A stretch of 57,762 nt of DNA from an uncultured Christensenella sp. (GTDB lineage Bacteria > Bacillota > Clostridia > Christensenellales > UBA1242): positions 1 through 57,762 of the forward strand of contig CAJUBT010000008.1 of NCBI GenBank assembly GCA_910584815.1, read 5' to 3'. The position numbers were made by a program, and so were the translations under genes. Of the stretch, positions 7,347 through 54,900 are shown piece after piece. The notes under the pieces are model-generated. The model did no database searches. It was given only the letters and a program-made list of their open reading frames with translations, and was not told where the DNA came from. Each line of letters starts with the position of its first letter. Positions within the stretch are counted from its first letter, which is position 1.

Positions 7347-10300
7347 AAAATTTTAAAACCTTCATTTGCATTGCAATTTGTTTAGTTGCTAGTTTTGCTG
7401 TTCTCCTCCTTTCCCCTTTTACCATAAACGCTTTTGCAGGTGTTGAAGATGCTGGTAAGAGTTATGCACAAAACACTCAAACAAGGTTTTTAACAATTAA
7501 CAATAACAAAACCGTTTTGTTTGATGACCATATAGAAAATTTATACACAATTAGTTCTTGTAACAATAGCACCAGTGGCGGTAATAGTGGCGATATTAGT
7601 TACGATAAAAATAATAAATCAATTAAGTTTACAACTTCTTCTAATGCAATAGATAAAAAGAACCCAAGAATAGAAACTGCCTTTAAACTTAATGGTAAAT
7701 ATAAAAGGGCAGTGGAAAAAGGCTTAATAACTGTTACTTTAAAGGTTAAGGTAGAAAATAAAAACGCTTCCACCGAAATTGGTTTTCAAGAAGGAACAAT
7801 TAACACAAACGGAGGAGATGGTTTTTCAGGCTGGAATTCTAAGAATGGAAGTTATGCTACCGTAAAAGATTTAGGTTCTTTGCAAAAAGAAGGAGATAAC
7901 TATGTTCTTAGTTTTGTTCCAACAACTACCGACATCTTATTAGTTTTTGCAAATAATAAAAGTGGTGGCGGAATTAACACAAACGAATTAACTATAACAA
8001 ATCCAACCATAGAATTAACTCGTAATGCTTCCCCAACTATAAATATTAGTGACCTTTTAGTTAATGGGAAAGTTTCCGATTCTAGTTGGACTGCTCAAGC
8101 AAAAACTTTAACCTTTAATGTATCTGATAATAATTTTGGAATAGATTATGTTACAATTAATGGCGAAAAAGTTGAATGTGATGAAAACAGCATAAACAAT
8201 GATACTTTAAAAACATATTCATATCTTGTAAATTCAATAGCAGAAACTAACTATACAATAACCGCTTACGATTATTTAGGTGGAACAACATCGGTTAGCA
8301 AAAAAGTTGGTTTTGTAGATTCTCAAGATGTTAGCGATGTTACTATTAATGCAGAAAATTCTTATCACGAAAAAAACATAACAATAGATATATCTTTTGA
8401 AGAAGACACCACTCATAGCCACGATAGTGTTTATTACACTTTAATAGATAATTCTACTGGGGAAGACCCAACTCCAAACCCAAATGATACAACTGGTAAA
8501 ACTAAAGAGGTTCCTCATCAAAATGGAAGATATACATTTAATTTTTCTTTTGAATTTGATGGAGAATATACTTTAACTATTTTAATTTGCGATGAAGCTG
8601 GTCATCAAAAAACATTTTCAAAAACCTTTACAATAGATAGTGTTAAGCGTAGAGTTAATGTTACAAGTCATAATGGTACATATAATATAACAGGCGTTTA
8701 TAGCGATGAGCAAGGATATTACACTTGGAACGGAGAAAGTATCACCTTAACTTACAACGCTAACGAAAACTTTAATTTTTACAAACTTCTTCGTAATGGT
8801 AGCGAAATGCAAACTAATGGCAGTGTTTATAATTACACTTGTAAAGATGCTGATATTAATATAGAAATTTTTAATAGATTTGTTGTTGATTTAAACGCAG
8901 TTGAAAGTTATGAATTTAGTGAAGATGGCACAAATTTAATTTATTCTTTAAATTCAAATTATTTGGTAAATGTTTTATCTAGGGAAGAATTGTCTAACAT
9001 TTTACAAGAAAATTTAGATGGTTTAACAGAAGAAGAAATACTACAAAAAGTTGATAGTTTAATAAATTCAAATTTAATTTTAACAATTAAAACAAATGGC
9101 TTTGTGGCAGATAGCATATATAACGTTGGCTCATATTTTGTTAGTTATAAAATAGACACACCAAATTTTACAGGTTCTAATAGTTTTAACATTTTAGTTA
9201 CTCCTAAAATTTTGCAAGTGGAATTTTTAGAAAATAATTTTACTTATAATGGTAAGGTTCAAAATGTTAATTTTGTTCAAATACCAAACCAAACTGTAAA
9301 TGTAAAATATTATTCAGTTTTGGAAGATGGCTCTGTTAGCAGCACGGAAACTTCACTTTTAAATGCTGGAACTTATAAAGCAGTTTTAACTTTAAATAAT
9401 GCTAACTATACGCTTTCTAATGGAGAAATAATTTTAACAATTAATAAAAAACAAGTTGAAGTTAAGGTAGAAAATACCACCTTCAAATATAATGCAAACA
9501 ATCAAAACATAATATATTCCCTAACAGAAGATATAGATTGTGTTGTTAATTATTTTAATAATGATGGCAATTTAGTTAACAATTTTAAAAATGCTGGAGA
9601 ATATTCCTATTCAGTTTTACCTTTAGATGAAGTTAATTATGAATTTATAAATAATTCTGGTAAATGCACAATTTTAAAAATTACAGCAAACATTCAAGTT
9701 AATAAAATTGTTTATGATTATACTGGTAATGCTTTAACATTAATTTATTCTGTTACAGATGAAAATGGTGAAGAAGTAATAGTTAACAATTTAACCATAA
9801 CCTATTTTGTTAATGGAGAAGTTGCAAATTTTATCGAACCAAATAATTACTCTTTTAGTTTTGATACAATAGATAGAGATAACTATATTTTAGGTGGCAC
9901 ACTAACAGGAACTGCAACAATTAAGAAAACTAAAATATTTGTTTTTGTTTCTAATACAGAATACGAATATACAGGCAGTGAAATAAAATTAAATTATTAT
10001 TTCTTGAACGAAGAGAATGAAAAGTTAGATGCCCTTAATAATATTTCTCTTGAATTTATAAAAAATGGGCAAGTTACAAACTTTATTGATTGTGGCGAAT
10101 ACGAATATAATTTTGTAACAAGCGATGTTAATTATGAAATTATTTTTAATAACAAAACATCCTTAACCATAGTTCCTGCAGTTTTAAATGTTCAAGTTTT
10201 AAATAATACCTATACCTATAATAGTTTAGGAAATTTATTAAACTATGTAATATTGTCAAATAATAATGTGAACTTTACAGATAATGAAAACATAATTTTA

Positions 10301-13300
10301 AGCATAACCAAAAATGGCGAAACAGCTTCATTATTAAATGTTGGCATTTACGAATATTCTTTTATATCTAATAACCAAAACATTATTTTAAATTCTGGCG
10401 ATATAACTGGAACAATAGAAATTACTTCAAAATTAGTTTATTTACAAAATGTTGTTGATAGTTATAGTTATACTGGTGAAGAATTAATTTTTAATTATAC
10501 ACTAAGTGAAAATATTGCTGTTAATGTTGAAATAGATACTTTAATTAACGCTGGTAGTTATAACTATATTGTAACAGCTTGCGATAGTAATTATGAAATA
10601 GTTAATGGAACAGGCTCTGTAGTTGTAACTCCAAAATCTATACAAGTTTTAAATATCTCAACCAACTATACATATACAGGTAACAATGTTGAAGTAACTT
10701 TTGATTTGGAAGAAGATATTGAAACTTATGTTACTTTTAAAAATGCTAACAATCAAAATGAAGAGCTTTTAAATAACATTGTTAATGCTGGCAATTATAA
10801 CATATTTATAACTCCTATTAACCAAAACTATGTGGTAGATTCTTCAAACATTATAATTACTATCAATGCAAAGCAAGTTGAAATTAATGTAACAAACACC
10901 ACTCAAACCTACAATAAAACAAATAAACAGATATCAGTAGAAGTAGAAAATAATGTGCCTTATGTTGTAACCTACTATAATGAAAAGGGTGAAGAAGTTA
11001 AAAACACAACCAATGCTGGCACTTATAACTTTGTTGTAAGTTTAACTAATTCAAACTATATTGCTAACTGCACAGGCACTTTGGTTGTAGAAAAATTAAA
11101 TGCATATTTAACAGTTGTTGCCGACCAATATAAAGTTTATGGTGATGTAAATGAAGAAAATTATGCTTATGCTTTAAACGGCGTTGTGGAAGGCGACGTT
11201 ATAGATGTTGTGTTAACTCGTAACGCAGGCGAAGCTGTTGGTTATTATCAAATTAATTTACAAAGTTATAATAACCCAAACTATAACCTAATTTATAGCC
11301 CAGTTAATTTTAAAATAATTGCAAAAAAACTTATTATTGTTGCAAATAATGTTACAAAAACTTACGAAAGTTTAGATGAAGAATTAACTTATAAAATAAC
11401 TTTTGGTGAACTTGTTAATAACGATGTATTATTAGGTAACCTTGAAAGAGAAGAGGGCGAAGATGTTGGCGTTTATAACATTAACATTGGAACCTTACAA
11501 ACACTAAACCCTAACTATCAAATTATTTTCAAAAAAGCAAATTTCACAATTATCCCTAGCGACCTTAAAATTAAAATAAATAATATAGAAACTACTTATG
11601 GAACCGAAGTTGCACTATCTTTCAGTGCAGAAAGAAGTTTTAACGAAACTATGGTAACTGGCGAAATTGCAAGGGAAGAAGGTTTTGATGCTGGCACCTA
11701 TTTAATTACAAAAGGTACTTTGCAAAGTAAAAATTATAATTTAATTATAACTAATGGAACTTATACAATAAATCCAAAGTCTGCTTTTGTAACTGCACAA
11801 AATTTAACAAAAACTTATGGTGAAGAAGATAACTTAAATTACACAGTAATAGGGCTTTTAAATAATGATGTTCTAAAAGGAGCATTAGGCAGAGAAACTG
11901 GCGAAGATGCTGGAACTTATTTAATAAATTTAGGAACTCTTCAAACTTTAAATCCTAATTATTTATTTAATTTGCAAGAAGCATATTATACCATAAATAA
12001 AGCCATTTTAACAGTTAATATTGCTAACCAAACTCAAGTTTATGGCGAAGAAGAAAAAGAACTTACTTATACAATTAATGGTTTAAAATTTAACGATGAA
12101 ATTAATTTTAAATTATTTAGAGAAAGTGGTTTAGATGTTGGAGAATATCAAATTGCTTGTGGCATTCCACAACTTAACAACTATTATGTTCTATTAAACA
12201 GCGGAAAATATACAATAACAAAAGCCAAAATAAGCCCTGTTTTAGTTGCTGAAACTTCAACATATAACGGCAAAGCACAAAATTTCACCAACACCAATTT
12301 CCCATACGAACTTGAATATACCTATAAATTAAATGGTATACAAGTTGACAGTGTTATAAATGCTGGAACTTATTTAGTTCAAGGATATTTTGCAGGTAAT
12401 AATAACTATGAACCAGCAAAAAGTAACGCAGTAACTTTTACAATTAACAAAGTTTCAGTTTGTTTTAATTTAGGTAATAATAACTTTGTTTACGATGGCG
12501 AAGTAAAATCTCCATATTTTTCTTTCGATTCTTCACTTGGGTTATCTTCAAATGCAATAACTTTTGAATTTGAAAATAATGCAATACCAAGAGAAGTTGG
12601 TTCTTATCCTTTCACTATTTTAGTAAATGATGATAACTACACAGGTTTTGCTAGCGGTGTTTTAAACATAACAAAACCTGTAACTATTGTAGGTGATGAT
12701 TCAATTATAGAATGTGAAGATGCAGTTTTTGATAGCACCATTTCAAACCTAAAACTTGTTAGTCACGTTTTTAATGGAAAATTTAATAATCAACAAGTTT
12801 TACAGGCTTGCACATTTGAAAACACTTCAGGTATAGATGAAAGCCACATCTTTACAGTAAGAATGCGTGCCAAAACAAGTGATAGCAATGTTTATGTTTA
12901 TAAAATAGATAAAAATAATGTTGCAAGCGAAGTTGTTGTTTCTGTTCAAGATGGGTATTATGTATTTAAGGTAGATGGGTTAGATTGTCAATACATAATA
13001 ACAAAAGATATTGAACCAATGTCCCTTATAACAATTGCTGTAATTATTGCTGTTTCAATTATAGTTTTAGTTGCAATAGTAATAGCCTTTAAAGTTAGGA
13101 AAAACCGCAAAAAGAAATTAGCACTAAAAATGGCAAATAACAATGCTACAATTAGCCTAGAAACAGTTACAACTGAAAACAATAACTTAAACGATAAAAA
13201 TAAAAAGAACAAAAAAGTGCGAGTAGATAATGTTATTTCAAGTGCGTTAAATAATGGAACTGTTAACACTAATGTTGAAAGCATTTTAGATGCTAATAAA

Positions 13301-13369
13301 AAAACAAGTGAAACCTGTTTAGATGAAAAAAATAAAAACGATGATTTAAACAATAATAACATTAAATAA
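7343..13369 (+). CDS. Giant surface protein with tandem Ig-like and MBG (YG..) repeats, C-terminal TM anchor and K/N-rich tail
   Basis: 2008-aa ORF with an N-terminal signal peptide. Has repeats of the type KTYGEED..L.Y...GL.N.D.L.G.L.RE.GEDAGTY.I..G.L....NY, a C-terminal hydrophobic helix (LITIAVIIAVSIIVLVAIVIAF) and then a basic tail. Confidence 0.8.
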   Translation: MKNFKTFICIAICLVASFAVLLLSPFTINAFAGVEDAGKSYAQNTQTRFLTINNNKTVLFDDHIENLYTISSCNNSTSGGNSGDISYDKNNKSIKFTTSSNAIDKKNPRIETAFKLNGKYKRAVEKGLITVTLKVKVENKNASTEIGFQEGTINTNGGDGFSGWNSKNGSYATVKDLGSLQKEGDNYVLSFVPTTTDILLVFANNKSGGGINTNELTITNPTIELTRNASPTINISDLLVNGKVSDSSWTAQAKTLTFNVSDNNFGIDYVTINGEKVECDENSINNDTLKTYSYLVNSIAETNYTITAYDYLGGTTSVSKKVGFVDSQDVSDVTINAENSYHEKNITIDISFEEDTTHSHDSVYYTLIDNSTGEDPTPNPNDTTGKTKEVPHQNGRYTFNFSFEFDGEYTLTILICDEAGHQKTFSKTFTIDSVKRRVNVTSHNGTYNITGVYSDEQGYYTWNGESITLTYNANENFNFYKLLRNGSEMQTNGSVYNYTCKDADINIEIFNRFVVDLNAVESYEFSEDGTNLIYSLNSNYLVNVLSREELSNILQENLDGLTEEEILQKVDSLINSNLILTIKTNGFVADSIYNVGSYFVSYKIDTPNFTGSNSFNILVTPKILQVEFLENNFTYNGKVQNVNFVQIPNQTVNVKYYSVLEDGSVSSTETSLLNAGTYKAVLTLNNANYTLSNGEIILTINKKQVEVKVENTTFKYNANNQNIIYSLTEDIDCVVNYFNNDGNLVNNFKNAGEYSYSVLPLDEVNYEFINNSGKCTILKITANIQVNKIVYDYTGNALTLIYSVTDENGEEVIVNNLTITYFVNGEVANFIEPNNYSFSFDTIDRDNYILGGTLTGTATIKKTKIFVFVSNTEYEYTGSEIKLNYYFLNEENEKLDALNNISLEFIKNGQVTNFIDCGEYEYNFVTSDVNYEIIFNNKTSLTIVPAVLNVQVLNNTYTYNSLGNLLNYVILSNNNVNFTDNENIILSITKNGETASLLNVGIYEYSFISNNQNIILNSGDITGTIEITSKLVYLQNVVDSYSYTGEELIFNYTLSENIAVNVEIDTLINAGSYNYIVTACDSNYEIVNGTGSVVVTPKSIQVLNISTNYTYTGNNVEVTFDLEEDIETYVTFKNANNQNEELLNNIVNAGNYNIFITPINQNYVVDSSNIIITINAKQVEINVTNTTQTYNKTNKQISVEVENNVPYVVTYYNEKGEEVKNTTNAGTYNFVVSLTNSNYIANCTGTLVVEKLNAYLTVVADQYKVYGDVNEENYAYALNGVVEGDVIDVVLTRNAGEAVGYYQINLQSYNNPNYNLIYSPVNFKIIAKKLIIVANNVTKTYESLDEELTYKITFGELVNNDVLLGNLEREEGEDVGVYNINIGTLQTLNPNYQIIFKKANFTIIPSDLKIKINNIETTYGTEVALSFSAERSFNETMVTGEIAREEGFDAGTYLITKGTLQSKNYNLIITNGTYTINPKSAFVTAQNLTKTYGEEDNLNYTVIGLLNNDVLKGALGRETGEDAGTYLINLGTLQTLNPNYLFNLQEAYYTINKAILTVNIANQTQVYGEEEKELTYTINGLKFNDEINFKLFRESGLDVGEYQIACGIPQLNNYYVLLNSGKYTITKAKISPVLVAETSTYNGKAQNFTNTNFPYELEYTYKLNGIQVDSVINAGTYLVQGYFAGNNNYEPAKSNAVTFTINKVSVCFNLGNNNFVYDGEVKSPYFSFDSSLGLSSNAITFEFENNAIPREVGSYPFTILVNDDNYTGFASGVLNITKPVTIVGDDSIIECEDAVFDSTISNLKLVSHVFNGKFNNQQVLQACTFENTSGIDESHIFTVRMRAKTSDSNVYVYKIDKNNVASEVVVSVQDGYYVFKVDGLDCQYIITKDIEPMSLITIAVIIAVSIIVLVAIVIAFKVRKNRKKKLALKMANNNATISLETVTTENNNLNDKNKKNKKVRVDNVISSALNNGTVNTNVESILDANKKTSETCLDEKNKNDDLNNNNIK

Positions 13370-13373
13370 AATT

Positions 13374-13406
13374 AAAAAAACACTAAAATATTTTTAGTGT
13401 TTTTTT
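13374..13406. terminator. Bidirectional terminator between convergent genes
   Basis: Stem AAAAACACTAAAA/TTTTAGTGTTTTT with 3-nt loop, flanked by an A run and a T run. Confidence 0.65.
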
Positions 13407-13438
13407 ATTAACTTAAATTGTTATTTTAGTTATAAATT

Positions 13439-14692
13439 TTATTCTGTTTTTGTTCTTGCAATAGTTGTGTTATCTTTCTTACGGTTTTGAAGTTGTTTTA
13501 TAGGGTGAGGTTTATCTTGATAGCGATAATCTTCTCCTCCTAGTTCCTTTAAACAATAATCCATTACTAAATGGCTTGGCACAGATTTTGGGTCATCGCA
13601 AGTAATTGCTTGTTGGTAGCAAAAGTATCTGTCTTTATCGGTTAATTTATTAACATCTTTGTAGTTGTCATCTTTAGCAGTTAAGGTTATAGAGTTTTCA
13701 ATAACATCTCTTATATAATCTTTGTGGCTGCCAATTTTAAGTAGCATAGGAAATTCTCCATCGCCAAAAACCTCGGTATAGTCTTTCTTTTCATATTTTT
13801 TAAGCAACCTAACAGCTTCTTTTAAATGGGCGCATTCCATTTCAAAATGGTCGTACCAGATGTCTTTTAATTCAAGGTTATCTTCATCTTCATAGGCACT
13901 ATAATATAGGTATGCTTCGGCATATTCGTGCATAACCCATTGTTCTAACCAAGTCATATTAGGGTCTTTTAAACTTTCATATTGTGTTACGTGGGCTTCT
14001 TCAATCATTGCAATTTCGCTATAAAGTTTTCTGCCAACATCATTTTTATACCATTGTGCAATGTTCATATAGTAATTCATTGTTTGTTGTTCTGCAGCTG
14101 TTATGGTACAGCCAACAAGTTTACTATAAAGGCTTGCTTTTTTTGCATTCATATGTGGCTTTAAGTCATCGGCAGGGTGGCGGTGTTCTGCTATTGTTGG
14201 TCTGCCTGGCATAATTTCTGTAAAGCCTCCAACAAGTTTTTTTGCATCAATTTTTTTGTCAACCATTAGCAAGTTGGCAAATCTATATAAATGGTCAAAA
14301 TCTTCAAGTAAAGCAAAGTCTAATGCTTTCTTGTTAACAGGGTCCTCTTCATATATAGCAAGAGATGCCGTTAAATCTACAGCAAGTTGTTCATAACCAA
14401 TGGTTGTTTCTAAAATGCTTTCATTTATCGGTTTTAAACAGGCAATGTGTTTTTGCTGCCATTGCTCTTGTCGTCTTATAATAGCCAAACTTTCAAGTAT
14501 TTCTTTTTCATTGCAGTGTCTGGCAAATTGGTGCATAAACCAAACAGATTCATATTCCGTGCCATTCATCAAAATCACTCTTGTTTTAGAATATGGTCCT
14601 GTTTTGTTTTTATTGTAAGCTTTAGGGTACATATCTTTTAAACTTTTAAAATAAGCGCTTAATTCTTTTGTTTCATAGGTTATTGGGTTCAT
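13439..14692 (-). CDS. Ferritin-like (putative di-iron carboxylate) domain protein, function unknown
   Basis: 417-aa ORF with GGAGG RBS. Several E..H motifs spaced as in helical di-iron proteins (IEEAHVTQYE, EMECAHLKEA, LEDFDHLYRF). Family assignment is from memory only. Confidence 0.4.
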   Translation of the reverse strand: MNPITYETKELSAYFKSLKDMYPKAYNKNKTGPYSKTRVILMNGTEYESVWFMHQFARHCNEKEILESLAIIRRQEQWQQKHIACLKPINESILETTIGYEQLAVDLTASLAIYEEDPVNKKALDFALLEDFDHLYRFANLLMVDKKIDAKKLVGGFTEIMPGRPTIAEHRHPADDLKPHMNAKKASLYSKLVGCTITAAEQQTMNYYMNIAQWYKNDVGRKLYSEIAMIEEAHVTQYESLKDPNMTWLEQWVMHEYAEAYLYYSAYEDEDNLELKDIWYDHFEMECAHLKEAVRLLKKYEKKDYTEVFGDGEFPMLLKIGSHKDYIRDVIENSITLTAKDDNYKDVNKLTDKDRYFCYQQAITCDDPKSVPSHLVMDYCLKELGGEDYRYQDKPHPIKQLQNRKKDNTTIARTKTE

Positions 14693-44943: not shown

Positions 44944-45288
44944 ATGAGGCTAAAGGAAATTAGAAAGCAAAAAGGTTTAAAACAAAATAAAGTAGCTCAA
45001 GATTTACAAATTAATGTTGTAACCTATAATGGCTATGAAACTGGGAAAAGCGAACCTAACATTCAAATTATATTAAAACTAGCAGATTATTTTAATGTTA
45101 CAACAGATGAACTTTTAGGGGCTCAAAGCAAACTTCCAACCCTTAGCGAAAAAAGTGCCTTACTTGGAAGAGTAAACCAGTTAACTGAAAACGAATGCCA
45201 CAAATTAAACATTTATGCTGAAGCACTTATGTTTGCAAGAGTTGAACATAAAGACAAAATAAATAAAATTATTAGAGATGAAGAATAA
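44944..45288 (+). CDS. XRE-HTH protein, DGR-adjacent paralog 1
   Basis: 114 aa with AAGGAGAG RBS. N-terminal HTH_3-like region and conserved C-terminal LTENECHKLNIYAEAL. Confidence 0.8.
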   Translation: MRLKEIRKQKGLKQNKVAQDLQINVVTYNGYETGKSEPNIQIILKLADYFNVTTDELLGAQSKLPTLSEKSALLGRVNQLTENECHKLNIYAEALMFARVEHKDKINKIIRDEE

Positions 45289-45608
45289 TGAAACTAAAAG
45301 AAATAAGAAAAAAACTTAAAATAAATCAAGATGAACTTGCAAAGGTTTTAAACACAACGCAGCATACAATTTCTAATTACGAAAACAATAAAACTCAACC
45401 AAGCATAGAAGACATTGTAACTTTAGCAAAGTTTTTAAATGTAACAGCAGATGAGTTGCTTGGAATGAATGTAAATAACGAAAATTTAATTGAAAGAAAC
45501 TTGCTATTCAAAACAATTAATGGCTTAACCGAAAGTGAATGCCATAAGTTAAATATATATGCAGAGGCATTAATAACTGAAAGAGAAATATATAAAGATA
45601 AAATTTAA
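45288..45608 (+). CDS. XRE-HTH protein, DGR-adjacent paralog 2
   Basis: 106 aa. The start overlaps the previous stop (TAATG). Same two-part architecture (LTESECHKLNIYAEAL). Confidence 0.8.
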   Translation: MKLKEIRKKLKINQDELAKVLNTTQHTISNYENNKTQPSIEDIVTLAKFLNVTADELLGMNVNNENLIERNLLFKTINGLTESECHKLNIYAEALITEREIYKDKI

Positions 45609-45630
45609 AAGAAACTAAAGAAGAGATAAA

Positions 45631-45993
45631 ATGAATTTAAAAGAAATACGAAAAAGAAATAAAAAGAATCAGAAAGAAGTTGCAGATTTTTTAAATGTTA
45701 TGCAATCTACCTATAGCGGATATGAAGTTGGTAGGGTGGAAATGACGGGGGAAACAATTATAAAATTATCTAACTATTTTAACGTTACAACCGATGAACT
45801 TTTAGGGGTAAAGAGAGAAGAAAAAACATTAACTCAAAAAAATACCCTTATGAATAAAATTAACAATTTAACAGAAAATGAATGTTATAAATTAAATGTC
45901 TATGCAGATGCTTTAATTATAAACAGAGAAGAACATAAGCAAAAAATTAACAAACTATTAACGGAAGAAAATGAAAAATTAACAAATTTTTAA
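45631..45993 (+). CDS. XRE-HTH protein, DGR-adjacent paralog 3
   Basis: 120 aa with the same architecture (LTENECYKLNVYADAL). Confidence 0.8.
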   Translation: MNLKEIRKRNKKNQKEVADFLNVMQSTYSGYEVGRVEMTGETIIKLSNYFNVTTDELLGVKREEKTLTQKNTLMNKINNLTENECYKLNVYADALIINREEHKQKINKLLTEENEKLTNF

Positions 45994-46167: not shown

Positions 46168-47316
46168 ATGATAGAAAACCGTTTCAACGAAGTTTTTAGT
46201 TTTGAAAATTTATATAAAGCCCACCTAAAAGCAAGGCTTTCTAAAAGAGATAAAAAAAGCATTGTAAAATACGAAATGGAATTAATTAGTAATTTGTATG
46301 ACCTATATAAAAAAATTCAAAATGGAACTTATAATATAGGTGTTTATAGCAAATTTATTGTTTACGAACCCAAAAAAAGACAAATTCAAACTTTGAATTA
46401 TTACGACCGAATTGTTCAGCACGTTTTATGTGATAATTTACTTATGCCTTATTTTACAAAGCGTGCTGTTTTAGATAATTGTGTTTGCCAAGTTGGGAAA
46501 GGCACTCACTTTGCCCACGACCGATTAAAAGCAAATTTGCATAAATTAATTAAAAAAAATTCTAATGACATTTGGTGCTTAAAGTGCGACATAAAAAAAT
46601 ATTTTCCAAGTTTGCCCCATAAAAATTTAGTTGAAACTTTTTGCAAGCATATTAGAGATGTTAACTTAAAAAATATGGTGGCGCAGATTATTGATAGTTT
46701 TCATACCAGTGAGGTTTTTCTTAAAAAACATAACATTTCACCACTTGGTTTAACAAAAACAGAAAGGGGGATTCCTATTGGCAACCAAACCAGCCAAGTT
46801 TTTGGAATGTTTTACTTAAATAGTTTAGACCGTTTAGTTAAGGAAAAATTAAGGATAAAAGTTTACAGCAGATATATGGACGATTTTTTGTTGTTTAGTG
46901 AAAGTAAAGAAAAATTAACATATGCTTTTAAACATATTAAGGAACATATTAAAAATATAGGTTTACAATTAAATTCTAAAACTCAAATGTTTCCGTTAAA
47001 AAATGGATTTAATTATTTGGGTTTTAATTATTCAGTTACCAAAACTGGTAAAATTTTAAAAACAATAACAACAAAAACTCGTAGAAGAATGAAATGGAGA
47101 GTTAGATACCTTAAAAAACTATATGAAGCAAAGCTAATTAATTCTGAACGGGTTGAAAGGTCGTTAGTTGCTTTTCACGGCCATTTGTGCCACGCAAAAT
47201 GTTGGTACTTAGAAAACAAACTGAGAAATGGGCTAAAACCAATGTTGCCGAAAGAAGTTTTTGAACGAGCAATAAAAAGTAAGAAAAAGAAAACTAAAGC
47301 AGTTATGTTAAAATAA
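46168..47316 (+). CDS. DGR reverse transcriptase
   Basis: 382 aa. Has the DGR-diagnostic motif 4 IPIGNQTSQVFGMFYLN (SQ rather than SP) and catalytic YMDDF. Also FENLYKAH...KRDKK, YEPKKRQI and DRIVQHVL. There is no SD. A promoter-like TTGGAA-17-TATATT ends 8 nt before the ATG. Confidence 0.9.
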   Translation: MIENRFNEVFSFENLYKAHLKARLSKRDKKSIVKYEMELISNLYDLYKKIQNGTYNIGVYSKFIVYEPKKRQIQTLNYYDRIVQHVLCDNLLMPYFTKRAVLDNCVCQVGKGTHFAHDRLKANLHKLIKKNSNDIWCLKCDIKKYFPSLPHKNLVETFCKHIRDVNLKNMVAQIIDSFHTSEVFLKKHNISPLGLTKTERGIPIGNQTSQVFGMFYLNSLDRLVKEKLRIKVYSRYMDDFLLFSESKEKLTYAFKHIKEHIKNIGLQLNSKTQMFPLKNGFNYLGFNYSVTKTGKILKTITTKTRRRMKWRVRYLKKLYEAKLINSERVERSLVAFHGHLCHAKCWYLENKLRNGLKPMLPKEVFERAIKSKKKKTKAVMLK

Positions 47317-47522: not shown

Positions 47523-47921
47523 ATGGATGAAAATAGGGTTGCAAGAACATTAATATCTCACGATAAAAGCAAAGATATGGCTGTGTTCACCCACGCCAAA
47601 AAATTAAGCGAATATATTTTTGTTATAACCGAAAAATCTCCTAAAAAATTAAGATGGAGTATTATAACAAGAATGCAAAACATATCGGTTGAAATTATAG
47701 AAAACCTATACCGTGCAAACTTAGAAAGGGGAGAACTTAGGGTAGAATATCAAAAGCGTGCCTATGTTAATGTGCAATTGCTAGACTATTATGCCTCTAC
47801 CGCAAAAACAATGCAAGCAATAAACAATCACCAAATGTTAGTGCTTGGCAAGAGCTTGCTAGATGTTAAAAAATTGTTACTAGGTTGGGTTAAAGCAACT
47901 AAAAATAACCTTTCAACCTAG
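47523..47921 (+). CDS. avd: Avd-like accessory variability determinant (four-helix-bundle, 23S rRNA IVS protein family)
   Basis: 132 aa with AAGGAGA RBS, basic and helical. The pattern F.HAKKLSEYIFVITEK.PKK.R.SI..RMQN.S.EI.EN..RAN is typical of Avd. Lies adjacent to the RT. Confidence 0.8.
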   Translation: MDENRVARTLISHDKSKDMAVFTHAKKLSEYIFVITEKSPKKLRWSIITRMQNISVEIIENLYRANLERGELRVEYQKRAYVNVQLLDYYASTAKTMQAINNHQMLVLGKSLLDVKKLLLGWVKATKNNLST

Positions 47922-48168
47922 TTGAGAACTTAATATATAATATATTATATATAATAACTATATAATAATATATCCTATTTATATAAACCTATTTATATAA
48001 ACCTGTTAGTAATTAAGTTTGTTGGTTTATTGTTAAACTTATTTTAAAATAAATTTTTAAATAAGTTTGCTGAGTTTTGTTGTAAAAATTTTATATATAT
48101 GTTTGCTTGTTTTTTTTTTAAGATAGTTAAATTAACTTATTGCTTTTTTTTTAAAAAATTTTAAATAT

Positions 48169-48201
48169 TGTGCTATAAACTTAAATAGCACAAATTTTTT
48201 A
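48169..48201 (+). terminator. Terminator after avd
   Basis: 9-bp stem TTGTGCTAT/ATAGCACAA with 8-nt loop, then ATTTTTT. Confidence 0.55.
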
Positions 48202-48251
48202 TGTGCCAAAAAAACAAAACAAACCTACAAAACAATGTTTTGTTAAAATTA

Positions 48252-48475
48252 CCTTAAAGCCTCACCGCACCGCCGAAACTTAAAAAAACAAAATTTTATT
48301 TTTTTAGGCTTTTTGCTTGCTAATGCCTCAAAACAAAATTTAAAATTTTTGCGTTGTGACAAGATGAGGCCACATTCACCCTCGCCATATTCTGTTGGCA
48401 ATTAGGTAGGATAGAAACCCCTTCACCACAAATCAATATCGGCTTAACTGTTATAAATAGTTAAGAACAGGAATT
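48252..48475 (-). ncRNA. Structured RNA island 1 (3' of TR-1 in the TR sense)
   Basis: GC-enriched block in an AT-rich spacer. Conserved core AGGTAGGATAGAAACCCCTTCACCACAAATCAATATCGGCTTAAC. Helices GCCTCA(48259)/TGAGGC(48365) and CTTAACT(48443)/AGTTAAG(48459). Confidence 0.5.
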
Positions 48476-48783
48476 TAACACTTTTAACATTGTTGTTGGT
48501 TTATAAAAAAAGTTTGCTCCTATATTTTATAGTTTTAAAACCATATGTAAAGTTTTTAAATCTGTAAACTTTTTTTGCCTTTTATAAACTTAAAACCATA
48601 AAAACTTAAAATATATTTTATTTAAAAATTTAAAAGTTTGTTTTTATAAACATACTTTTTTTAAAATATTCAAATTTTAAAATTTTTATAATGCTTTTAA
48701 ATTTAAAACTTTTAAAGACTTGTTAAAAAATAAAAAGCAAATTAGGAACCATATTTTTTTAAACCTTAACAAATAAAAAGGCG

Positions 48784-48904
48784 GTGAAGCGCGGGACGAA
48801 CGGCGTTAGAATTGTGAACGTTGTTATTACTCCAATCAGCGCCAGAAGGGTTGAGTATATACGCATTGTTAGCATTATTGTTGTTGCCAGACCGCAACCA
48901 CGAA
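48784..48904 (-). repeat. DGR template repeat TR-1 (intact, no cognate VR in window)
   Basis: 121 nt with the same 18-nt and 22-nt end blocks as the VR. 12 in-frame AAY codons and no stop. Differs from TR-2 at 17 internal positions. Confidence 0.75.
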
Positions 48905-49338
48905 AGAAAGAGAAAAAGGCCCCGACCTAATTACAAGGTTTTTACCCCTTAATATAAAACTATCATAAAACTTTAAATTATGTAAAACATAATAGTTTTA
49001 TTTTTTTTGATTATAAAATAAATTTTTAAAATTTGTTTTGAATTGTTCAGCTTTTTTAGTTTTTTATTGTTTTTTTAAAAAAATGCTTTTACAAAAAAAC
49101 TAATTAAAAACAAATGCAAAACAATTTAAAAAACTTAGCCTTAGCATTATATAAAACTTTTTTTAAATTTTTTTATTTATAAAAAACACAAAATTTAAAA
49201 TAAAAAAAGGTTTAATTAACAATTTAAAGCATTTTTTAAATGCACATAAAAGGTTTAGCAAAAAAAAATTAAAAGCCTTTAACCTTTATGCTTTTTTATT
49301 TTTAAATTTGCTTAAAGTTTTAAAAAAACTGAATAAAA

Positions 49339-49565
49339 AAAGCCCTACCGCACCACCACCTTAGTTACTAAAAAAAATTATTAATTTTTTTAGTAAGGGC
49401 TTTTGCTCACACCCCAAAACAAAATTAACTTTTGTGTTGGAGTAAGGTAAGGCAATATTCACCCACGCCACATTTATTTTTTGTTGGCAAGCAGGTAGGA
49501 CAAAAATCCCTTCACCACAAATCAACTTCGGCTTAACTGGTGTTAATAGTTAAGAACAGGAAAAA
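49339..49565 (-). ncRNA. Structured RNA island 2 (3' of TR-2 in the TR sense)
   Basis: Same core as island 1. Helix GCCCTACC(49342)/GGTAAGGC(49446) is C:A on the + strand but U:G on the - strand. Hairpins at 49414-49440 and 49532-49554. On the - strand the last helix is followed by U7. Confidence 0.55.
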
Positions 49566-49743
49566 CCCTTTTAATGCACCATTTAAAAATAAACTAGGTT
49601 TTTTTTAGGCTTTAAAACTTAAAAGTTTTGTTAAGTTTTTAACCGCTAGCACAAGCACTTAAACTTGTTTAAAAATTTTTGCAATAAAAAACTTAAAACA
49701 AAAAAAGTTAGTTGCCATAAAATAAACCTACACATTAAAAGGT

Positions 49744-49864
49744 GGTGAAGCGCGGGACGAACGGCGTTAGTATTGTTGACATTATTATTACCGTTACTAG
49801 CGCCAGAAGAATTGAGATTGTAAGCATTGTTAGCATTATTGTTGTTGCCAGACCGCAACCACGA
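49744..49864 (-). repeat. DGR template repeat TR-2 (cognate of VR 53016-53136)
   Basis: Its reverse complement aligns gap-free with the VR. 18 mismatches, 17 of them at TR adenines. 15 in-frame AAY codons. Confidence 0.9.
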
Positions 49865-50283
49865 AAGAAAGAGAAAAAAGACTCCAGCCCAAAATACAGA
49901 TTTCTGCCCCTTATTAAAACTTTATCACAAAACTTTAACCTTTAGCAAATGTTAAACCTTAAGTTTTAACTGTTTAATAAAAGCTTTTAAAAATAATCTT
50001 CGTTTAAATTTGCAAAAGTTTGGTTTTTTATACCTTAGCTTTTAAATTAAAAAACTGTGTTCAAAAAATGTAATTTAAAAAAGGGTTTAAGGTTTTAAAA
50101 AAACAAACCCCAACTTAAAACAAATAAAAACTATTTTTTTAAAACAACAACATAAGTTTGTAATTTTTTTAAAAACAACTTTTAAATTGTAAATTTTGGT
50201 TAAAACATTTTTTAAAAAATATAATAAAAAGTGTTTTTTATAACTTAAAAATTTTTTGGCATTTTTTAAGCTTTAAATAAAAA

Positions 50284-50552
50284 AAAGCCCTACCACAAAA
50301 AAGGCTTTAAAAAAAAATTTTAAGATTTTTTTGTAAATAACTTAAAACAAAAAAATAATTTTGCGTTAAGTTAAGGTAGGGCAACCTTCACCCTTCTTTT
50401 AATTTAAAAATTGTTTTTTAAAAAACCTTTTTTTTAAATTTTGCTTTTTATTAAAACAAACCAAATTAAAAGTGGCGGGTAGGATAAAAACCCCTTCACC
50501 ACAAAATCTAATCGGCTTAACAAACATTTTTTATGTTTTGTTAAGAGCAGGA
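50284..50552 (-). ncRNA. Structured RNA island 3 (divergent, with ~90-nt AT-rich insertion)
   Basis: Perfect helix GCCCTACC(50287)/GGTAGGGC(50375), extended 12-bp CTTAAC.../...GTTAAG hairpin (50516-50545), and conserved GGTAGGATAAAAACCCCTTCACCAC. Confidence 0.45.
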
Positions 50553-50831
50553 AAATAACTGCCTTTTAAAATTTTACTAAATTGTGGCTTGCGGCAAATT
50601 TTTTAAACTTGCTTTGTTTTTTAATTAATAAAATTAAAAATTAATTGTTTTAAATTCCATTTTAAAACTGGAGTTTTGTGGCAACTAACTTTTTTTGTTA
50701 AGCCCTTTTAATTGCTTTAAAATGCAAATTTGTTAAGGCTAAAACCTTAGTTAAAACAACACAACTTGTCAACTAAATTTTTTTTAAAAAAAACAAGCCT
50801 GTAAAAAAAGCAAACCTAAACTTTAAAAGGT

Positions 50832-50950
50832 GGTGAAGCGCGGGACGAACGGCGCTAAACGCACTGCAGCAAAACACCCTAAGAAAGTGCGCCAGAAGAA
50901 AAACAAAAAGCGTGGCGGGAAGCCTACTAGCAGCCAGACCGCAACCACGA
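50832..50950 (-). repeat. Degenerate TR/VR-like copy 3 (adenine-poor, indels, in-frame stops)
   Basis: 119 nt. Both end blocks are identical to TR-1, TR-2 and the VR. The central 79 nt have only 7 sense-strand adenines, several TAG codons and a length difference of -2. Confidence 0.7.
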
Positions 50951-51938
50951 AAGAGAAAAGGAGAGAAAAAAGCCCGAAACTTAATTTATGATTTTTACCC
51001 TTAACTTTAACTTACCACACCTTAAAAACCTTAAACAATTTAAAGGCAATAAAATGTTTAAGATATTTACAACTTAAATAAATTTAAACTTTTTTATTAA
51101 AAACTCAACTGTTTTAATTTTTTTAAAAAACAAATTTAAATGCTATTTTTAAAAAATAATTTTAAACCAAATTTTAAAAACAAAAAATTTTAACTTTAAT
51201 TTGCTTTAAAAACAAAAATTAAATTTTAATGCTAAAAAATAAAAGTTAAACTTAAACAAAGTTCCTTTAAGCAATTCTAGATATTTTTTAATTAAATGCT
51301 AAAAATTAAAATCTCCTATTTTTTGCTTTTTAATTTAATAAGTTATAAAGTTTATAAACCTATTTTTAATGCTTTTATAACAATTTAAAAATTTGCCTTT
51401 GTTTTGTTTAAAAACTAAATTTTGTTAAAGGTGCAAAAAACTTTTTTTGCAAACTTAGGCTATAATTTATTATTTTAAAATATTTATAAAATAAATAAAA
51501 TAAGCCCAAAAAGGCAAAAAATGTTGGTAAATATTAAAAAAACTATCTATTTTTGTTGTAATTTTGCTTTAATTTATTTATAATTAACAATGTAAAATAT
51601 CCAAAATTTGCCAATTTTAAACTTTGTTGCTTATAAAGGGTTTTTTTAAATTTTAAAACAATTAAAATTAAAACTTTTAATTTAAAAATTTAATTTTATT
51701 TTAAAAAGCAATTTAAAAGTTTTTAAACTTAGTTCTTTTTAAATTAATTTTAAAATTTTTTGTTAAAGTTTAATTCCTTACTTTTAGTTTAGTTTTAATT
51801 GCTTGTTTAAGAAAGTTGCTTTTGCTGCAACAAGTTTAACAGTTTTTAGTTTAGTGCTAACTAACTAAACCCATAAATTTTACAAATTTAATAAATGATA
51901 GGATAAATTTTTTATAAAAAACTAAGGAAGGATTTAAT

Positions 51939-54900
51939 ATGAAAAAGTTATTTTTGAGTATAAGCACTTTTTTTGTTTTTACGCTTTTAACATTAAGCGT
52001 TTTTTTTGTTGACTTTAAACCAGATATGGCTAAAGCCTTTAATTCCGAAAACACTACCACCGCAGTTAAGGTAGATGAAATTTGGAACGACACCGCAAAA
52101 AAATTTGATGATGATAACCTAACAAAACTTTTGCAGTTTGTTACAGGCAGCAACACTGTTAGAACAAACAACCTAAGCACCGTTAAAACACAGGCAACCA
52201 ACAAAAAAACAGCCAGTGCAATTAGGGGCACAGCAGTAACTGCCAGCACCGATGGTGCAGTTAAAACTGCAAGTAAAGATATTATTGTAACATTAGGCGG
52301 GTTAGACTGGACCCCTGTATATTTAAGTAACGATACCTCCTCAAACCCAATTTTAACCTTATGGCTAGCAAACTCTAGCCAACTTAATGGCAAAAAATAC
52401 TACACAAGTAACACAGCATCTTCTTCCTTTGGTTCAAGTGGCTCAGCAATGTGGAATAGTGGTTTTACCCCTTGGACAACAAGTGCAGATGGGAATACTT
52501 ACTATTATAACGATTCTGCAACTCCTGCTTCATCCTATCCAGACAATATGTATGGTATGAGTGCAATAAGAAGCACCGTTTTAAACAATGGAGGTTCTTA
52601 TTCAACTGCACATATGGGTAAAAGCACCGCTACTATGAGTAAAAAGAGCGATAGTGTTTTTAGCAAATTCACAGTAACCACTTCAAATTCCACTGCCATT
52701 GCAGACTATTTAACTGTGCCAACAAATGTTTCTTGGCAAAAAAGTGGGCAAAATTTATCAAAAACTTGGTTTAGTTACCAAGCACCAAGTGAAGATTTGC
52801 AAACTGGCGTAAACACCTCTACTGCAGGTTATTATACAACAACATCTTATGTTTCTAATGGGCAAACTGCAAGTATGAATTATACAAGTAGAAGCAATTA
52901 CACTCAATGGAGTAACGATCGTTTATGGCTTCCTTCAGTTACAGAGACGGGCTACGATGACACACATATAGGCATTTGGAGCACTACAACTGAACAAAGG
53001 TCGAACACGCAGTGGTCGTGGTTGCGGTCTGGCTACTACTATCCTGCTAGCAGTGCTTACCATCTCCTTTCTTCTGGCGCTAGGTACGGTTTTAATATTG
53101 TCAGCAGTACTTACGCCGTTCGTCCCGCGCTTCACCTTAATCTAAACTCGGCTGCGGCGAACACAATTAGTGCTATAGACATTAACACTTGCGTGGTTTC
53201 AAACTTAAGCAATAGTCAATGGAACCCAGTAAGCAACCCAATTCCAACCTTCACACTTAAAACCCCAGATGGTAAAACAACATTAACTAAAGATACCGAC
53301 TATACTGTAACTTCTTCTTCAACCAGTGCACCTGGCACTATAACTTTAACAATCAAGGGGAAGAGCAGTAAATATGAAGGCACAAAAACTGTAACCTATC
53401 AACTTGAAAAAAGAAGCATAACCCGTGCGTTGAGAGACAACACCTTGAGTGTTGCCAACCAAACTTGGACGGGTGAAAACCTCACGCCCGCGTTAAGCGG
53501 GCTGAAAGACTACGCCTATAATGCCGACACTGGTGGCAGCAAACTTAGCACAACAGGCGTAGCCTTAACCCAAAACACACACTACACCCTTAGTTACACA
53601 AACAACAAAAACATAGGCACTGCAACCATAACAATAACTGGGGCAGGCAACTACACTGGTTCAACAAGTGTTAACTTTAACATTGTTGCTGTGGATATGA
53701 GTTTAATTACGGTAGATGCCGTTGAAGATAGAATTTGGAACCCAGTAAGTAACCCAATTCCAGAAATTGTGGCAAGATACACAGGTGCAAACAAAACCTT
53801 AACCACCGCCGACTATACTGTTACAAGCTCTGCAAAAACCGATGGCACTGCTGTGCCTGGCGAGGTTACTTTAACCATAACAGGTAAAGGCAACTACACT
53901 GGCACAAAAACTGTTAAATATATGTTAAACCGCCGAGACATTGGCTTGGCATTAATGGGTAACACCCTTACTGTTGCCAACCAAACTTGGACAGGAGAAC
54001 GAATTGAACCTGTTTTAACAGGCTTAAAAGACTATGGTTACCAAACCTTAACAAGCCAAACTCCGCTAAGCCCAACAGGCGTTCCTTTAACCTACAACAC
54101 TCATTATGTGTTAAACTATACTAATAACATAGACCTTGGCACTGCAACTGTAACAATAACAGGCAATGGGGTTTACTACACTGGCACAACCTCAACTGCC
54201 TTTACCATTGTTGCGCGCAGCATTGCCGATGGCACATTAAGTTTAAACCAAACTAATTTAGACTATAATTTTGGTGAAGATTTACTTCCAAGCCTTGTTG
54301 CAACCTTAGAGGTTAACAACAAAACTTTAACCACAAGAGATTACGACCTTTCTTACTATTCTCCAACAGGCAGTGCTGTTACAAAAATAACCGATGCAGG
54401 CACCTACAAAGTTAGGGCAACAGGCAAAGGCAATTATACAAGTGCAAAGGAAATTAATTTTGTTGTAAGCAAACTTGCATTGCGTGAAGAATTTTTTACA
54501 ATTAGCCCAAGCAGTTACGAATATAAAAATTCTCAAATAATTCCTACCTATACTGCAAGCTACACCTACACTGCTGGCAAAACCTATAATTTTAGACCTA
54601 CCGATTTTTCTGTAACCTATGGTGAAAATGTTAACGCTTCAACAGGCGGAACAGTAACTTTTACAGGTGCAGGCAGTAATTTTGAAGGCACTGTAATTAA
54701 AAAATTTACAATCACAGCAAAAAGCATTAGTGCAGGCGACATTACAAAACCAACAATTCCAAGCCAAACCTACACAGGCAGTGCAATAACTCCAAGTTTT
54801 ACATTAACCGATGCAACTCTTGGGCGTGCCTTAGTTAAGGATGCCGACTACACTGTAACCTTTACAAACAATGTTAATGTTGGCGAAAGCAGTGCTGTTG

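Follow-up and report, generated by a model that had tools for sequence, protein, structure and literature searches.

In the diversity-generating retroelement (DGR) of Bordetella phage BPP-1, cDNA synthesis is primed from residue A56 of the spacer (Sp), which is paired with U118 of the template repeat (TR), such that TR residue G117 becomes the first templated base (Handa et al. 2018, PMC6182149; bioRxiv 10.1101/2023.10.23.563531). The four base pairs that neighbor the active site are essential, and an RNA carrying the A56G/U118C changes still primes in vitro; G is also required at Sp53 and Sp57, and changing the G that follows the priming nucleotide abolishes synthesis (PMC6182149; 10.1101/2023.10.23.563531). 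Cryo-EM of this system revealed the TR:Sp duplex in the active site of the reverse transcriptase (RT), adjoining a duplex between Sp59–70 and avd369–379 (the cPRT Stop), which is followed by a stem-loop and two adenosines (10.1101/2023.10.23.563531). Here we describe a DGR with three TRs in a 57,762-nt stretch of DNA from an uncultured Christensenella sp. (contig CAJUBT010000008.1 of assembly GCA_910584815.1), hereafter the window, in which the 3′ end of each TR can form 9 bp with a downstream island. We consider it probable (roughly 85%) that this match is the template:primer duplex of a BPP-1-type, minus-strand DGR template RNA, and that it presents the last G of a GAAG sequence for priming. 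DGR cis-priming is a known mechanism, published for BPP-1, and is not new. The present work contributes comparative support for this priming duplex from one clade of gut Bacillota DGRs, along with exact predictions for the locus described.

The DGR occupies 46.1 to 57.8 kb of the window and comprises, in order, the RT gene, an Avd-like open reading frame (ORF), three repeated modules that each carry a TR, and a large target ORF, for a surface protein, that contains the single variable region (VR). On the plus strand, the core sequence CTTCACCAC is present in each of the three islands (48421–48429, 49510–49518, and 50494–50502), and the boundary of the corresponding TR reads GTGGTGAAG at 49742–49750 and 50830–50838 or, for TR1, the variant GCGGTGAAG at 48781–48789. 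In minus-strand RNA, the TR 3′ end CUUCACC(A/G)C can therefore pair with GUGGUGAAG, which is located 235 to 365 nt downstream in each module. An initial annotation, made from the sequence of the window, had reported this 9-nt complementarity between island core and TR boundary in all three modules. Our searches bear this out, because the exact 9-mers occur five times on the two strands of the 57.8-kb window (0.08 expected) and at no other sites; its coordinates are also correct except for those of the TR1 boundary, which it had placed at 48782–48790. Likewise, the duplex does consist of the TR 3′ end plus two flanking nucleotides as that annotation had stated, given that TR/VR homology spans TCGTGG to CTTCACC and ends there, leaving 7 TR nucleotides and 2 flanking nucleotides in the duplex. 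Exact ends of 18 and 22 nt are common to the VR and all three TRs. When sequences were subjected to mononucleotide shuffling, a downstream sequence perfectly complementary to one of the 9-mers that lie within ±5 nt of the TR boundary arose in 0.1 to 0.6% of trials per module. The three modules are paralogues and were counted as a single observation within the window, in agreement with the caveat of the initial annotation that they are duplicates.

Comparison of the TRs with the VR establishes the strand of the template RNA. TR1 (48783–48903) and TR2 (49744–49864) are 121 nt each and contain 26% and 28% A, respectively, whereas TR3 (50832–50950) is 2 nt shorter at 119 nt; all three lie on the minus strand. 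The VR (53016–53136, plus strand) is 121 nt, corresponds to residues ~360 to 400 of the target protein, and is the reverse complement of the TR1 and TR2 cores. The minus-strand reading of these cores is rich in A and contains AAY codons. Of the 18 sites at which the VR and TR2 differ, 17 are TR adenines, and therefore the sense strand of the TR is the minus strand, as the initial annotation had assumed for the pairing. The differences between TR and VR are thus almost confined to TR adenines and the VR resides inside a coding gene, as expected of a DGR. At sites without adenine that discriminate TR1 from TR2, the VR agrees with TR2 in 8 of 8 cases. These two findings indicate that the present VR was last copied from TR2 and that the DGR has been active.

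Modules were folded whole, from upstream of the TR through the U run at the end of each module. The pair probabilities for the duplex between the TR end and GUGGUGAAG were 0.79 to 0.98 in all three modules, with the exception of the terminal pair of module 2, which has a probability of 0.54 and is unformed in the minimum free energy (MFE) structure. Furthermore, the MFE structures of all three modules include a second duplex of 12 to 13 bp, wherein AAGGGG(U/C)A(A/G)AAA(C/U)C upstream of the TR pairs with the strand located directly 3′ of GAAG. The TR thereby forms a large loop, with two abutting helices at its base. We call the second helix the Stop-like duplex.

In module 1 (all features on the minus strand), the 5′ strand of the Stop-like duplex is AAGGGGUAAAAACC at 48937–48950, which aligns with the (A)AGGGC of related loci and pairs with 48408–48420 in the MFE structure. 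The template strand of the primer duplex, at the TR end, is CUUCACCGC (48781–48789), with the G at 48790 predicted to be the first templated nucleotide. The primer strand GUGGUGAAG (48421–48429) ends with the predicted priming nucleotide, G48421, and is the counterpart of BPP-1 Sp47–56 with its A56. Next follow the junction G(G) and the 3′ strand of the Stop-like duplex, GGGUUUCUAUCCU (48408–48420), for which there is evidence from both the MFE structure and covariation in relatives. The equivalent parts of module 2 are the 5′ strand AAGGGGCAGAAAUC (49899–49912), identified from the MFE structure and by alignment with relatives, the TR-end strand CUUCACCAC (49742–49750; predicted first templated G at 49751), and the primer strand GUGGUGAAG (49510–49518) with the junction and Stop-like 3′ strand (49497–49509), which together (49497–49518) are matched by the covariance model described below. 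In module 3, the 5′ strand AAGGGUAAAAAUC (50990–51002) is likewise placed by the MFE structure and by alignment with relatives, the TR-end strand is again CUUCACCAC (50830–50838; exact motif and fold), and the primer strand (50494–50502) plus the junction and Stop-like 3′ strand (50481–50493) span 50481–50502, in accord with both the fold and the covariance model.

The TR flank has one other potential partner. Specifically, CACC(A/G)CC could pair either with the primer strand or with GG(U/C)GGUG near the terminator, and these alternative pairings might create on and off states of a conformational switch. A perfect 7-nt complement to the TR flank is indeed present on the minus strand of modules 1 (GGCGGUG, ~48267–48273) and 2 (GGUGGUG, ~49350–49356), just 5′ of the 3′ arm of the terminator-like helix, wherein the A-to-G change of TR1 is matched by a U-to-C change, and a partial fold of module 2 made use of this pairing. 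However, its pair probability is ~0 in the whole-module folds, module 3 lacks the complement, which was also not seen in the relative that was examined (locus L008), and two paralogues can provide one co-change at most. We therefore regard such a switch as very improbable.

Near-orthologues could not be compared because close relatives of the RT are carried only by short contigs: an identical RT is present on two, both of which end before or inside TR1, and the next closest RT (65% identical) is on a contig of 1.3 kb. The identical RT is found in runs SRR33518548 and SRR27010431. BLAST searches of the islands against related loci yielded nothing useful, and a degenerate pattern scan of metagenome contigs for close relatives of the islands gave only chance matches in high-GC contigs. 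A motif search followed by a covariance model was needed. The pattern GAG-N(1–2)-UGAAGGGR...GUCCUGCC was found in 48 of the first 91 RT-related loci by simple motif search, and the covariance model was built from 39 relatives with the window excluded. Within the window, this model identified only the three islands (E values of 4.6e-12 for module 2, and 8.3e-11 and 1.6e-6 for the others), with the next match at an E value of 0.21. It also reported ~100 sites in ~62 of 80 RT-related genome loci but none in 11 viral contigs with more distant RTs. Rfam models gave no match at gathering thresholds over the window, and none at E ≤ 1 over 48100–51100. The spacer RNA is often present in multiple copies per locus, and in some loci it is encoded on the strand opposite to the RT.

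Pairing between the TR end and the primer strand is conserved in this family. All 44 of the distinct strand pairs from relatives form a duplex of 7 to 10 bp, nearly always in the same register with the same first C:G pair. In most loci the TR end reads CUUCA-CUC-N and the spacer reads N-GAG-(1–2 nt bulge)-UGAAG. The distal pairs covary, with CAC/GUG in the window and in L021, CUC/GAG in most loci, CUU/GAG in L036, CUAA/UUAG in L035, and CUCC/GGAG in L069, L072, L073, and L076. L043 carries CAC/GAG with an A·A mismatch, and its sequence looks like that of an intermediate. Cognate and non-cognate partners were compared by calculating duplex energies after permuting partners among loci (2000 permutations). 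For the whole primer duplex, cognate partners gave −8.5 kcal/mol versus −7.4 kcal/mol for non-cognate partners, and for the distal part alone the values were −3.5 and −2.8 kcal/mol; in neither case did any of the 2000 permutations reach the observed value. The primer duplex of the window is the most stable in the family, at about −15 kcal/mol. Column-wise pair counts on a MAFFT alignment of the concatenated strands were abandoned, as bulges and register shifts of one base put the partners out of alignment.

The Stop-like duplex provides a still larger signal. Across loci, alignment of the strand upstream of the TR gives (A)AGGGC..., ~7 nt past a TATAAT-like box, and this strand pairs with the spacer strand that follows GAAGG. 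Cognate partners (−17.7 kcal/mol) are again favored over non-cognate partners (−12.3 kcal/mol; 0 of 2000 permutations), and covariation is heavy. Moreover, each Stop-like duplex includes ~3 G·U pairs, such that its energy is −17.6 for the TR sense versus −10.4 for the antisense, with the TR sense better in 59 of 60 modules. These G·U pairs are strong strand evidence and place the RNA on the TR-sense strand. The strand clue offered by the initial annotation, a G:U wobble in the TR1 variant, is correct but weak, since in the family as a whole the primer duplex does not discriminate between strands.

These data also bear on the notion that the 9-nt match has a role in DNA, either by recombination between inverted 9-mers or by target recognition resembling that of an initiation of mutagenic homing (IMH) hairpin, or that it arose by chance and was copied by duplication. 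Inverted repeats can act in DNA, and the paralogous modules amount to one observation in the window. In contrast, matches of this quality were rare in the shuffled sequences, dozens of loci preserve the pairing, with covariation, bulges, and G·U pairs, no GTGGTGAAG partner is situated near the VR, and the adjacent duplex works on one strand only. A DNA-level or chance origin is largely refuted by the covariation, the pairing in relatives, and the one-strand Stop-like duplex, and we assign it almost no weight.

The arrangement of these parts closely parallels that of the BPP-1 RNA. Upon inspection, the BPP-1 sequence includes avd369–379 (AGGGCAGGCUG), Sp47–56 (UAGGUGGUCA), G57 and C58, Sp59–70 (CGGUUCUGUCCU), GCUUCGGC, and GAA. 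The corresponding order in the family is AAGGGC..., GAG-N-UGAAG (GUGGUGAAG in the window), GG, GCUUNCGUCCU (G(G/A)UUU(C/U)U(A/G)UCCU in the window), GCC...GGC, and GAA(A). Both systems thus have an upstream strand, the TR, a primer strand on the TR 3′ end, a Stop strand that finishes with GUCCU or AUCCU, a stem-loop, and GAA, and the motifs AGGGC, GUCCU, and GAA can be recognized by eye in each. In all window modules and nearly all relatives, GAAG followed by G is opposite gcG followed by CUUC, whereas in BPP-1, GUCA followed by G is opposite G117. The two junctions are presumed to be functionally equivalent. Other shared features are a G that faces the first templated G, a G at positions −3 and +1 relative to the priming nucleotide, RT and Avd genes that adjoin the RNA, and adenine-specific VR changes. 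The gap between the primer and Stop strands is 2 nt in BPP-1 and in the relatives, and 0 to 2 nt in the MFE structures of the window modules.

Several features differ between the two systems. The predicted priming nucleotide is in a G:C pair in the window rather than an A:U pair, and the window duplex consists of 9 uninterrupted Watson–Crick or G·U pairs, compared with 7 canonical and 3 non-standard pairs in BPP-1. Unlike BPP-1, the family has a conserved hairpin (hairpin 2) between the TR and the primer strand, to which the window alone adds an AT-rich expansion of 150 to 280 nt. The 5′ strand of the Stop-like duplex is located outside avd here but inside avd in BPP-1. In addition, the window has three modules per VR, and these modules are antisense to RT and avd, both in contrast to the BPP-1 DGR.

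It could be argued that the primer duplex is real but only aids RNA folding or RT–Avd assembly, with priming occurring elsewhere or by other means such as the 3′-OH of a cleaved RNA or a separate primer. Priming from nicked RNA at the same site is reportedly an alternative for BPP-1 (PMC5703328), and several relatives tolerate mismatches in the duplex. However, both published models for BPP-1 agree on the 3′ end of the same Sp strand as the site of priming, and the window keeps a G at both −3 and +1 as well as the short gap to the adjacent duplex noted above. We therefore consider a folding or assembly role without priming to be improbable.

By analogy with BPP-1, we propose that the 9-bp match serves as a template:primer duplex in the following manner. 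Each island would be the spacer part of a template RNA transcribed from the minus strand, in the order AAGGGG... 5′ strand, TR, CUUCACC(A/G)C, AT-rich expansion, hairpin 2, GUGGUGAAG, one or two G residues, Stop strand, stem-loop plus GAA, and terminator-like helix. The template:primer duplex and the adjacent duplex would enclose the TR as a loop, and the last G of GAAG (plus-strand positions 48421, 49510, and 50494) would be presented to the RT–Avd active site as the priming nucleotide, presumably with its 2′-OH as the point of initiation. The first templated base would be the TR G just 5′ of CUUCACC (48790, 49751, and 50839). The cDNA would then run 5′-ward through the TR with adenine mutagenesis and replace the VR at 53016–53136, and the adjacent duplex would set the end of polymerization. 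The proposal of the initial annotation that the pairing could position the priming site is supported by the fold, the adjacent covarying duplex, the BPP-1 arrangement, and conservation in relatives. That annotation had also put the pairing at the end of homology, where reverse transcription is expected to start; the duplex is indeed there, but the start, by analogy, would be 7 nt inside the homology.

A number of observations weigh against this interpretation. The argument is built from sequence, folding, and comparative evidence. The five proximal pairs (CUUCA/UGAAG) are invariant, because the TR end doubles as VR coding sequence, and hence provide no covariation signal. The covariation is confined to the distal 3 to 5 pairs and its energy advantage is modest. 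Uncompensated mismatches occur in L043 (A·A), L011 and L025 (A·C), L042 (pair 2), and L026 (pair 5), and L036 is without two proximal pairs. Thus, the covariation that the initial annotation had proposed to look for across the duplex in related loci was found for the distal but not the proximal pairs. The window duplex is uninterrupted, whereas those of the relatives have a bulge of 1 to 2 nt. Likewise, the distance from TR end to primer strand stands in contrast to the 72 to 100 nt that separates them in most relatives, which is due to AT-rich expansions that the relatives lack. An Avd-binding stem-loop is expected just after the TR but is not clear in the window. Finally, the covariance model finds the BPP-1 spacer at the right place and strand (L217, 2783–2825, minus strand), but the score of 5.1 bits (E value of 2.6) is not significant. 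Kinship with the BPP-1 RNA is therefore suggested by architecture and short motifs, without a significant alignment score.

Putative cPRT Stop duplexes and Avd-binding stem-loops have been predicted in 207 DGRs from many phyla (10.1101/2023.10.23.563531), and the window and its relatives fit the description of RNA elements in that survey. As we read it, the survey reports no conservation of the template:primer duplex itself, which the present comparison supplies, with covariation, for one clade of gut Bacillota. Comparative evidence, as opposed to a single solved structure, thus indicates that the self-priming architecture of the BPP-1 DGR RNA is kept in a large clade of low-GC gut bacterial DGRs, including the G/G junction and the close spacing to the neighboring duplex. 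The sequence rule that predicts the start and stop of cDNA in such elements is GAAG followed by G, facing G followed by CUUCA, and adjoining AAGGGC/GUCCU. The boundaries of a minimal template RNA, for use in reconstitution or engineering, also follow from the comparison, as do the exact nucleotides to mutate at this locus.

The remaining RNA features of the modules are evident from a minus-strand alignment of the three, in which conserved blocks are located between AT-rich stretches of variable length. Two elements carry compensatory changes among modules, namely the hairpin CUUAAC...GUUAAG and a long-range helix (GCCYYAYC...GGURRGGC) with a U run after it. The former is hairpin 2, which together with a UUCCUG element occupies 48439–48473 in module 1. 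This hairpin covaries strongly among 45 sequences (for example, UA:26 and CG:14 at one pair) and carries a compensatory change in module 3. The AT-rich expansions of ~150 to 280 nt between TR end and spacer core (48474–48780, 49563–49741, and 50554–50829, minus strand) fold as long irregular hairpins. Directly after the TR end, the window modules form a 4-bp hairpin and then the long AT-rich irregular hairpin, whereas relatives form a hairpin of 6 to 7 bp. RNAalifold analysis of the spacer alone also proposed a local hairpin (GGGG/UCCU), which was rejected because it is without covariation and competes with the better-supported long-range duplex.

A stem-loop with adenosines behind it (stem-loop 3) comes after the Stop strand, reading ACC...GGU plus GAA in the window and GCC...GGC plus GAAA in relatives, with closing pairs that change from GCC/GGC to ACC/GGU across the family. 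In module 1, it is located at 48375–48407 and contains the second GGUGAA copy of the island. We had considered this copy as an alternative primer strand, but it is the closing strand of stem-loop 3 plus GAA and reads GGCGAAA in relatives, which explains the presence of a second copy in each island. The long-range terminator-like helix of module 1 is formed by GCCUCAUC...GGUGAGGC and has a short U tail (48251–48370); it is supported by the MFE structure and by the compensatory changes among modules. On the basis of module comparison and MFE structures, stem-loop 3 with GAA and the terminator-like helix span 49334–49493 in module 2 (GCCUUACC...GGUAGGGC plus U7) and 50279–50477 in module 3 (GCCCUACC...GGUAGGGC plus a U run), where stem-loop 3 is enlarged. 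The counterpart of this helix in relatives carries a U8 tail.

Alignment of the related loci suggests that each module is its own transcription unit in multi-module loci, and that the template RNA may begin with, or immediately ahead of, the 5′ strand of the Stop-like duplex. A TATAAT-like box precedes the AGGGC of each module in L003, L025, L026, L029, L045, and others, and the U-rich terminator of the preceding module is often found there too. In the window, a scan with promoter and terminator consensus sequences was uninformative, with 18 sites versus 20.5 expected in this AT-rich DNA.

DGRs with several TRs per RT are known from genome surveys (e.g., Yan et al. 2019, PMC6642488). The present locus differs in that each TR is part of a complete module with its own primer and Stop strands and terminator-like helix. 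Moreover, the ends of all three TRs are identical to those of a single VR, and one TR is depleted of A and interrupted by stops. TR1 has an open frame and is an intact alternative template. TR3 is a degenerate template with 8 adenines (7% A) and four in-frame stops, and its sequence predicts that it cannot serve as a useful donor. The RNA scaffold of the TR3 module is intact, including the 5′ strand, priming duplex, Stop strand, and terminator-like helix, and it folds best among the three modules. TR3 may represent a fossil left by retrohoming into a TR copy; alternatively, it may be a decoy. We tentatively entertain, as a doubtful extension of the proposal above, a multi-template DGR in which three self-contained TR RNAs, probably with their own promoters, compete for one RT–Avd and one VR. 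TR1 and TR2 would then permit a switch of repertoire, the TR3 module would be such a fossil or would titrate RT–Avd as a decoy, and the uninterrupted 9-bp duplex and the 150- to 280-nt expansion would be adaptations of this variant.

Other multi-copy arrangements were observed among the relatives. L015 (9647–11153) has ~7 template cassettes with a period of ~203 nt, which is not a multiple of 3, and a single spacer RNA after the last cassette. Some of these cassettes are A-rich and some are A-poor, and each has the 5′ strand and a CUUCACUC end. L023 (~10000–13900) has ~15 to 20 cassettes and 4 spacer copies, whereas the whole module is repeated in L004 (9753–12243; 6 spacer copies) and L003 (5800–7600; 6 copies). 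The existence of several templates with one priming spacer would imply template choice through alternative pairing.

DGR-type RTs are defined by an IGxxxSQ motif and a YMDD box. The RT of the window (46168–47316, plus strand; 382 amino acids; Pfam RVT_1, E value of 2.2e-20) carries IGNQTSQ and YMDD (YSRYMDDF) and is therefore of the DGR type. It has ~1277 homologues, with 43 to 58% identity to those in metagenome-assembled genomes of gut Clostridia/Christensenellales. Adjoining the RT, as expected of a DGR, is the Avd-like ORF (47523–47921, plus strand; 132 amino acids), whose match to Pfam bAvd (E value of 7.9e-10; 39.6 bits) is just below the cut-off of 40; a protein identical to its product is annotated PF22296. 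A segment of avd (47572–47598, codons 17–25, plus strand) is 74 to 81% identical to 48361–48387 and 49444–49470, which correspond to stem-loop 3 with its GAA and to the 5′ arm of the terminator-like helix, and the module RNA would thus be partly antisense to avd mRNA. We did not take this likeness (repeat D17) as meaningful, because by our estimate chance would produce a 27-mer with 20 to 22 matches in a search space of this size. The interval between avd and module 1 contains a 9-bp hairpin (48168–48193) that T runs border on both strands. This hairpin resembles a bidirectional terminator, at which the RT–avd transcript and the module 1 RNA would both end.

The target ORF starts at 51939 on the plus strand and runs past the end of the window (57762), and thus encodes >1,940 amino acids. 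Most DGR targets have the VR at the C terminus. In this target the VR is near the N terminus and is covered by a DUF6273 match, and the remaining protein consists of Ig-like repeats (repeat families D3, D6, D9, and D10). The G+C content of the 57,762-nt window is ~27%. Immediately upstream of the RT, three tandem paralogous HTH_3 genes (44944–45993, plus strand) encode proteins of 114, 106, and 120 amino acids (repeat families D2 and D7).

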